Positions 9,899 to 10,508 of a stretch of DNA of 64,000 nucleotides are shown piece after piece (position 1 is the stretch's first letter; the number at the start of each line of letters is the position of its first letter). Source of the DNA: Rickettsiales bacterium UBA2645 (lineage in GTDB: Bacteria > Pseudomonadota > Alphaproteobacteria > Rickettsiales > UBA1997). Both the position numbers and the translations under genes were made by a program. The DNA lies in contig DENL01000005.1 in NCBI GenBank assembly GCA_002359655.1, positions 13,192-77,191 of the forward strand, in the 5' to 3' direction. The notes beneath the pieces are model-generated. The model ran no database searches, was not told the origin of the DNA, and worked only from the letters and a program-made list of their open reading frames with translations.

Positions 9899-10403
9899 AT
9901 TCATTGAGCTTGGCCAAACTCCAATTGATGATGACGAGAAACAAGCTCTAATTCCAAATATTAATACCTTAGAAGAATTAAATGTCTGGGAACACGAAAA
10001 CATCATAGAAGCCAGAAAATGGGCATTAAGTCCAAAAGTACTTAGCCGATATGATATTTTCGATGTCGATTTTCTGCTCAAGCTTCACAAAAAAATGTTT
10101 GATAAAACTTGGAAATGGGCAGGGCAACTCAGAACTAGCGATAAAAATATTGGCTGCGATCCTAACTTAATCCGAATTGAATTAAAAAAACTTTGTGGCG
10201 ATGCTAGATATTGGCTTGATAACCAAACTTACTCAACTGAGCAGCTTGCTTTAGTTTTTCATCATCGACTGGTAAAAATTCATCTATTCCCAAATGGCAA
10301 TGGCCGTCAGGCAAGATTGGTATCTGATTGTATAATTAAAAATTTGCACCGTCGAAAAAAATTGACTGGCAGGGCAATAATTTCAGCTCTGCAAAAGAGC
10401 TAA
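9885..10403 (+). CDS. Fic/DOC family protein (resembles 'mobile mystery protein B'); the 0-frame is truncated and a C-terminal extension is available in the -1 frame to 10483
   Basis: Fic motif 'HLFPNGNGRQARL' (HxFxxGNGRxxR). After the A7 run at 10355-10361 the 0-frame ends quickly. The -1 frame encodes 'KKIDWQGNNFSSAKELRKNYILALHKADGGDYSKLFDLFTKN'. Confidence 0.75.
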   Translation: MMKIKFIELGQTPIDDDEKQALIPNINTLEELNVWEHENIIEARKWALSPKVLSRYDIFDVDFLLKLHKKMFDKTWKWAGQLRTSDKNIGCDPNLIRIELKKLCGDARYWLDNQTYSTEQLALVFHHRLVKIHLFPNGNGRQARLVSDCIIKNLHRRKKLTGRAIISALQKS

Positions 10404-10508
10404 GAAAAAACTATATTTTAGCACTTCATAAAGCTGATGGCGGAGATTACTCGAAGTTATTTGATTTATTTACAAAAAATTAGCTAATAGATCAGCAATA
10501 GAATCGAC

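Follow-up and report, generated by a model that had tools for sequence, protein, structure and literature searches.

A mobile mystery protein B (Fic) gene of a Rickettsiales bacterium, probably inactivated by a recent one-nucleotide deletion in a short adenine run

Mobile mystery proteins A and B (families TIGR02612 and TIGR02613) are encoded as pairs of genes, with A upstream of and overlapping B, a Fic-family protein with the motif HxFPNGNGRxxR. No function has been shown for this family, which the literature names only in passing. The closest solved folds for protein B are those of the class I Fic toxin-antitoxin (TA) systems VbhT/VbhA and EcFicT/EcFicA, in which the partner is also small, upstream and overlapping. 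Here, we analyzed an A/B pair located in a 64,000-nucleotide stretch of DNA (the window) from Rickettsiales bacterium UBA2645 (GenBank assembly GCA_002359655.1, contig DENL01000005.1, positions 13,192 to 77,191 of the forward strand). Comparison with its relatives indicates that the Fic gene of this pair is most likely a recent pseudogene, generated by the deletion of one nucleotide from a homopolymer (10338-10342) and residing in a mobile, horizontally acquired, TA-like cassette. A first-pass annotation of the same DNA had proposed that the gene needs a -1 shift at an in-phase A_AAA_AAA heptamer to make its conserved C-terminus, and had listed a homopolymer pseudogene or sequencing error, phase variation and programmed slippage as explanations. 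The homopolymer pseudogene is the option that we adopt, though with the missing base in a run of five A (A5) rather than in the run of seven (A7).

The window pair shares with other mobile mystery A/B pairs the matches to both family models, the overlapping A-B order and the Fic motif, and the cassette context differs in each relative. It differs from them in that its B gene is broken by the one-nucleotide deletion and its protein A scored 111.9 bits with TIGR02612, slightly under the 122.6-bit cut-off, with full-length coverage. Compared with the class I Fic TA systems, the identity of the window Fic protein is only 17-20%, its motif has Asn in place of Asp/Glu, and its partner is a 153-aa helix-turn-helix (HTH) protein rather than an antitoxin of ~60 aa.

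Two other kinds of described systems resemble the locus. Cassettes with -1 frameshifting, such as dnaX and the transposases of the insertion sequences (IS) IS3 and IS1, have in common with it an in-phase A_AAA_AAA, a short spacer, a downstream stem-loop and a longer product made by the shift. The heptamer A_AAA_AAA is used by IS elements, and heptamers without stimulators give about 0.1-0.3% frameshifting in E. coli (PMC4066793). The window differs from these cassettes since its layout is unconserved, its break lies upstream of the heptamer, it has no Shine-Dalgarno (SD)-like stimulator, and its hairpin is weak and common to intact, unshifted orthologues. The slippage-rescued genes (the 'pseudo-pseudogenes' and savior indels, tssM of C. 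rodentium and the poly(A) tracts of endosymbionts) are similar in having a single-base indel near an A-run with the downstream frame intact. They differ in the length of the runs, which is about 8-9 or more A/T in the rescued bacterial genes, transcriptional slippage being significant at about 9 A/T and sometimes at 8 (PMC1088944); the window lesion lies in an A5 and the nearby run is an A7, both shorter than that length. A literature search for Fic together with frameshift or slippery found no report.

The coordinates of all features are collected in Table 1. The 0-frame open reading frame (ORF) of the Fic gene exceeded the curated TIGR02613 cut-off (175.8 versus 124.4 bits), matched the Pfam Fic domain with 44 bits, and contained the core motif HxFxxGNGRxxR as HLFPNGNGRQAR, starting at 10281 (window 10281-10316). 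Residues 1-152 of its product are native, and the final 20 (NLHRRKKLTGRAIISALQKS) are out-of-frame junk. When the 0 frame was joined to the -1 frame, the TIGR02613 score rose to 206.5 bits and the aligned part of the profile was extended from 2-148 to 2-183 of 186 positions (206.5-207 bits for the different reconstructions). The -1-frame peptide, whose homology to the Fic C-terminus had been proposed in the first-pass annotation, also holds the family-invariant residues W162, R174, Y177, D185 and Y189. Hence the two proposals that the conserved C-terminus is encoded in the -1 frame and that a product of ~199 aa can be reconstructed from the two frames were both borne out.

The same annotation had called the protein a potentially toxic AMPylase. 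The acidic position of the Fic motif is Asn in the window protein and across the whole family, while canonical AMPylating Fic proteins carry Asp or Glu (HxFx(D/E)GNGRxxR), so the label 'AMPylase' is unproven, and the chemistry of the mobile mystery protein B family may differ from AMPylation. The family-wide form of the motif is HxFPNGNGRHxR, in which the window copy has Q for a nearly invariant H (GNGRQ, H142Q). The NCBI protein NBV07096.1 (GCA_009924125.1, RFSF01000041.1) corresponds to window 9885-10403 and is annotated as an ordinary 'mobile mystery protein B', not as a pseudogene.

The position of the break was determined at the codon level. Across the A7 run the 0 frame reads cgA AAA AAA TTG and then reaches its TAA, and the -1 frame reads KKIDWQGNNFSSAKELRKNYILALHKADGGDYSKLFDLFTKN followed by a stop, that is KKIDWQGNNF...LFDLFTKN, ending at 10483. 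The open -1-frame stretch is bounded upstream by a TAA at 10337-10339, so that the two frames overlap from 10340 to 10400, and the slippery heptamer lies inside this overlap in 0-frame phase. Since the -1-frame stretch 10340-10483 has no in-frame ATG, GTG or TTG, it cannot be translated independently; none of the listed ORFs is located there. Read from 10340, the -1 frame (KFAPSKKIDWQG) matches the orthologue consensus (KKFAPTKKIDWQG). In particular, its portion at 10343-10360 (FAPSKK) agrees with the K[FL]AP[TS]KK of the orthologues, while the 0-frame NLHRRKK agrees with none. The codons of the orthologues are ATT AAA AAR TTT GCx CCx xxx AAA AAA ATT GAC TGG, and those of the window ATT AAA AA- TTT GCA CCG TCG AAA AAA ATT GAC TGG.

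In the MAFFT DNA alignment with 11 orthologues, a single gap was found and it fell in the A5 run, where the orthologues have AAAAAR. Homology thus changes frame before the heptamer is reached, 13-17 nt upstream of the A7, with 12 bases separating the two runs. The A7 itself aligned base for base and without a gap to the in-frame A7 of the intact loci L033 (AGT AAA AAA ATT) and L035 (GGT AAA AAA ATT), by which it is of ancestral length, and a check of A7 versus A8 would therefore examine the wrong run. The A_AAA_AAA phase is explained in the same way, as a one-nucleotide deletion upstream shifted the reading of ancestral AAA AAA ATT codons. Thus the phasing of the heptamer, the stop at 10403 and the -1 reading to 10483 stood as first described, and the placement of the shift at the A7 did not. 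The TIGR02613 score was tried as a means to tell the two junctions apart and rejected (207.0 for the A5 and 206.5 for the A7), since the loop is too variable family-wide and close orthologues alone decide.

Relatives were then compared, with their DNA obtained by scans of genome contigs and metagenome contigs (L-numbers denote the fetched loci). The protein search returned one truncated match, identical to the window product (P0001), and beyond it full-length single-ORF relatives only, 197-230 aa in length. The closest intact relatives have about 80% identity (81% or less), and nine orthologues at this level as well as dozens of more distant ones are single ORFs, with a protein alignment continuous across ...DCIIKKFAPxKKIxWQG.... 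At the A7 position the orthologues use AAA AAA, AAG AAA, AGA AAG, AGA AAA or CAC AAG, and this variety of codons indicates that the run is without synonymous-site constraint. The two-frame layout with its slippery site was found in none of the intact orthologues, and no diverged carrier of the same frameshift was found in the genome-contig, metagenome-contig and protein searches, which gave 100%-identical copies or intact relatives at no more than 81%. None of the orthologues compared naturally ends at the 0-frame stop. The orthologue comparison, which the first-pass annotation had named as a check, thus upheld the conserved C-terminus and went against a two-frame arrangement in relatives.

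Breaks at other sites were found in further Fic relatives: L048 carries an additional T (at GAT TGT), L040 a stop in place of the invariant W110, and L095 an in-frame TAA before W162, and the frames of L084, L088, L079, L007 and L031 change at other sites. These independent disruptions suggest that the Fic family gene decays frequently in metagenomic populations, and breakage at unrelated places is what a dispensable gene under sporadic decay would show.

The lesion was reproducible. The exact truncated Fic protein was present on ten contigs, and all ten, when read, carried the broken (OFF) allele. Identical DNA was found in JGI 3300014050, JGI 3300008962, ENA ERZ28587405, the NCBI metagenome-assembled genome GCA_009924125.1 and Logan SRR5323351; the loci from these five sources (L001, L002, L003, L090 and L091) have 99.97-100% DNA identity to the window over up to 6.5 kb, both A-runs included. 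Among 5.8 billion protein clusters, no intact full-length Fic variant of ~100% identity was found. In the 64-kb window, with a coding density of 88.6%, no other split gene was found despite 29 runs of 8 nt and 125 of 7 nt; the candidates examined (35628-36563 / 34597-35673, 30449-31378 / the S15 gene, and others) were distinct complete genes. A random assembly error is therefore an unlikely cause of the frame break and, judged from these assemblies, the lesion is real and fixed in a near-clonal population.

An AlphaFold (AF2) model of the Fic protein was built with 96 homologues and was confident (pLDDT 92). The best Foldseek matches of the model were 3zcb, 3shg and 5jff (VbhT, EcFicT), with a probability of 1.00 and TM scores of about 0.62-0.71 over the whole length; no solved structure was found among close relatives. 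In this model the lesion comes where helix 140-154 ends, and the lost part comprises a loop and helices 170-185 and 190-196, with the five invariant residues named above. From these losses we infer that the 172-aa product is non-functional. A C-terminal inhibitory helix of class III (NmFic) type was considered and rejected, because the Fic C-terminus has S-x-x-x-E-L and not E-(G/N), and its Glu is not conserved in distant members.

The proposed sequence of events is as follows. The Lys-Lys codons AAA AAR have lost one A; the most likely cause is that replication slipped on a tract of A6 (or AAAAAG). Ribosomes would then add 20 wrong residues and stop at 10403, so that the product ends before the final two helices of the Fic fold. 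The -1 frame downstream has stayed open and shows no decay, which would make the event recent in evolutionary terms. Trace -1 slippage could restore a near-native protein in which NLHRR replaces KFAPS at the helix-loop junction, with the junction peptide ...NLHRRKKIDWQGNNFSSAK, and the A7 is the best candidate site for any such leak. Judged by the values for unstimulated E. coli heptamers, the leak would amount to roughly 0.1-0.3%, and the modest hairpin may raise it. We found no sign that frameshifting here is selected or programmed.

Table 1. Features of the mobile mystery A/B locus (window coordinates)
Feature	Position	Strand	Evidence or detail
Left ~175-nt direct repeat around the A/B cassette	9175..9349	+	86-88% identical to right copy
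Mobile mystery protein A, HTH (XRE-type), intact, overlaps Fic start	9422..9898	+	TIGR02612 111.9 bits, profile 4-149/150; Pfam HTH_3
Mobile mystery protein B (Fic family), 0-frame ORF	9885..10403	+	172 aa; TIGR02613 175.8 bits, profile 2-148/186; Pfam Fic
A5 run, site of the 1-nt deletion; orthologues AAA AAR (Lys-Lys)	10338..10342	+	MAFFT DNA alignment, 11 orthologues
-1-frame open stretch, native C-terminal 47 residues (KFAPSKKIDWQGNNF...LFDLFTKN) and stop	10340..10483	+	Codon comparison, dN/dS
A7 run, Lys-Lys-Ile codons (AAA AAA Att), now phased A_AAA_AAA	10355..10361	+	Sequence; orthologue codons
7-bp hairpin GCAGGGC/GCUCUGC, 10-nt loop, 7 nt after A7	10369..10392	+	-11.0 kcal/mol
0-frame stop codon TAA	10401..10403	+	Sequence
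Right ~175-nt direct repeat; imperfect hairpin, 21-nt arms 10595-10615 / 10671-10691	10540..10713	+	86-88% identity

The state of the -1 frame was assessed by the ratio of non-synonymous to synonymous substitution rates (dN/dS). Between the window and its ~80% orthologues, the 152 N-terminal codons gave a dN/dS of 0.04-0.10 and the 47 codons of the -1 frame one of 0.07-0.14, and the medians between orthologues were 0.05 and 0.08 for the N-terminal and C-terminal parts, respectively. Since synonymous sites are saturated in the comparison with the nearest relatives (dS about 1-2), the ratio cannot separate 'recent' from 'still used', and it was discarded as a means of dating the lesion. The undecayed C-terminal coding thus means either that the deletion is recent relative to the deep divergence or that the region is still translated. 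Lineage-specific changes were also tried as a test of relaxed constraint, but the six specific to the window (H142Q in the GNGRH motif included) and the three on the sister stem were too few.

Several observations weigh against a simple pseudogene. The -1 frame is undecayed, with a dN/dS as low as that of intact orthologues, and continued translation would give the same result. The broken allele is apparently fixed in several samples (as read from consensus assemblies). The three classic ingredients of bacterial -1 frameshifting coincide here, namely a heptamer A_AAA_AAA in phase, a spacer of 7 nt and a hairpin of 7 bp and -11 kcal/mol, and the leak could exceed the unstimulated level. Moreover, the chance of finding a suitable heptamer in an overlap of ~20 codons is only ~4%, as estimated from the run counts of the window.

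An alternative is a compensatory 'savior indel', in which the deletion attenuates a toxic Fic protein and a hairpin-assisted -1 shift at A_AAA_AAA, made by ribosomes or on transcripts that gain an A, keeps a selected, low level of near-native protein. Such indels have been described in other systems (PMC5009743), and this reading would explain both the undecayed -1 frame and the intact partner gene A. We nevertheless consider it unlikely. Both the heptamer and the hairpin belong to the ancestral coding sequence and are present in intact orthologues as well (hairpins of -10.1, -11.1 and -9.6 kcal/mol in L033, L035 and L038, respectively), the hairpin being common to them because it is formed by the W-Q-G...S-S-A codons. 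No SD-like GGAG/AGGA was found within the 25 nt before the A7, and the 80-nt fold of the region was no better than that of shuffled sequences (z = -1.0). In addition, no diverged lineage found has kept the arrangement, the product would contain five wrong residues, and the loss of a toxin needs no compensation. If it were true, compensatory frameshifting would naturally set the dose of a toxin in a free-living bacterium, and the mobile mystery A/B family would gain a first functional handle.

A programmed -1 slippage at the A7, of ribosomes or of transcription, that evolved as a means of titrating the Fic enzyme, as the first-pass annotation had suggested, has only a slight probability. It is suggested by the in-phase heptamer and by the conserved C-terminus in the -1 frame, but homology switches frame upstream of the heptamer, and the orthologues are all single-frame, with AAA, AAG or AGA as Lys codons and no conservation of the A-run at synonymous sites. 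The A7 is below the slippage threshold of ~9 nt (PMC1088944). The window ORFs tolerate 112 sense-strand runs of at least seven A in 57 ORFs, 37 of them in A_AAA_AAA phase, and no run in the window is longer than 8 nt. In-phase A7 heptamers are therefore common here and on their own no efficient shift sites, and these counts suggest that the genome tolerates A7 runs and avoids longer, truly slippery ones. With the relatives broken at unrelated positions and the hairpin shared by intact orthologues, programmed slippage is already largely refuted by the orthologue comparison.

A sequencing or assembly error in a gene that is really intact, which had also been put forward, is about equally improbable. 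The lesion does lie in a homopolymer and the data are consensus assemblies; against this, Illumina data are not generally prone to errors in a run as short as A5, the A5 and the A7 recurred unchanged in five sources and pipelines at the identities given above, and neither a second split gene in the 64 kb nor an intact variant among the protein clusters was found. Phase variation, in which the A-tract would switch the Fic gene ON and OFF, is less probable still: a homopolymer indel in a potentially costly gene would suit it, but contingency tracts are typically longer than the 5-6 nt found here, ten of ten contigs are OFF, and no ON allele, that is no full-length variant of this allele, was found in the protein database. 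That the truncated 172-aa protein is itself functional, as a Fic core without the C-terminal helices, is equally hard to credit in spite of its full HxFxxGNGRxxR motif, its score above the family cut-off and the normal annotation at NCBI, for two helices of the fold and five invariant residues are gone, 20 out-of-frame residues end the chain, and no relative ends there naturally.

Inactivation of the Fic gene by the one-nucleotide deletion, the explanation we prefer, can also be viewed in the context of its cassette. In 84 fetched loci, the Fic gene is directly preceded by a homologue of protein A (tblastn E <= 1e-3); in the window copy, metagenome gene callers put the start at 9437 (153 aa). 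Fic proteins are inhibited through the helix motif (S/T)xxxE(G/N), and protein A contains a conserved motif that resembles it: TMSLEDQ at residues 122-128, or [ST]-M-x-L-E-D-Q in the family. M, E and Q were found in 66 of 66 unique sequences and S/T in 62 of the 66. At the last position of the inhibitory motif, protein A usually has D (44/66) rather than G/N, with N in only 5/66. The motif suggests that protein A is an HTH-fused, class I-type inhibitor of B.

The A/B pair is bracketed by direct repeats of ~175 nt (Table 1), which have only these two copies in the window and each contain the palindrome ATACCCCRATTGGGTAT. They may have arisen as a duplication of the target, or they may serve the cassette as recombination sites. 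The relatives L033, L037 and L005 lie amid other repeated elements of 45-130 nt resembling cassette arrays. At L092, a syntenic locus of a related genome (ENA ERZ27280297, 1389-1746, corresponding to window 9082-10801), a spacer of ~358 nt separates the kinase from the methyltransferase-like gene and no A/B cassette is present; nucleotide identity to the window is 74% for the kinase and 77% for the methyltransferase. The cassette would thus be an insertion in the window lineage, or was lost in the L092 lineage. This empty site was also considered for deciding whether the 175-nt repeat is a target duplication, and rejected since the intergenic region is too diverged to align. None of more than 80 other cassette loci has the flanks of the window or the 175-nt repeat. 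The absence of the cassette from L092, together with flanks that are not common to other loci, points to a lineage-specific acquisition, which fits the family name and a dispensable, TA-like role.

A hybrid sensor kinase on one side and the methyltransferase-like gene on the other flank the pair, in otherwise chromosomal surroundings with pstA, folP and dnaK. The homologues of the methyltransferase-like gene (10802-12178) are labeled by JGI as 'extracellular factor (EF) 3-hydroxypalmitic acid methyl ester biosynthesis protein' (PhcB-like), and several hybrid histidine kinases and response regulators flank this gene; together they may make up a locus of quorum-sensing type. The only hit of Rfam and tRNA scans across the window was a tRNA-Met (44393-44469), with none in the flanking repeats. 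Elsewhere in the window, an array of clustered regularly interspaced short palindromic repeats (CRISPR) at 61397-62556 (66-nt period, at least 15 units) makes up the one large non-coding gap (1.27 kb). It is followed by cas2 (62626-62958) and a type II (NMENI-type) cas1 (62972-63889), both on the minus strand, and any cas9 of the locus would lie past the window end.

In conclusion, the Fic gene of this A/B cassette is probably dispensable and toxin-like. For annotation, the comparison identifies NBV07096.1, listed as a normal protein, as the product of a gene truncated by a frameshift. The locus also illustrates how ordinary Lys-Lys codons can come to look like a textbook slippery site after an indel upstream of them. 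For the biology of the mobile mystery family, the side findings, namely the invariant-Glu motif of protein A, the 175-nt repeats and the empty syntenic site, may be more useful than the frameshift itself.

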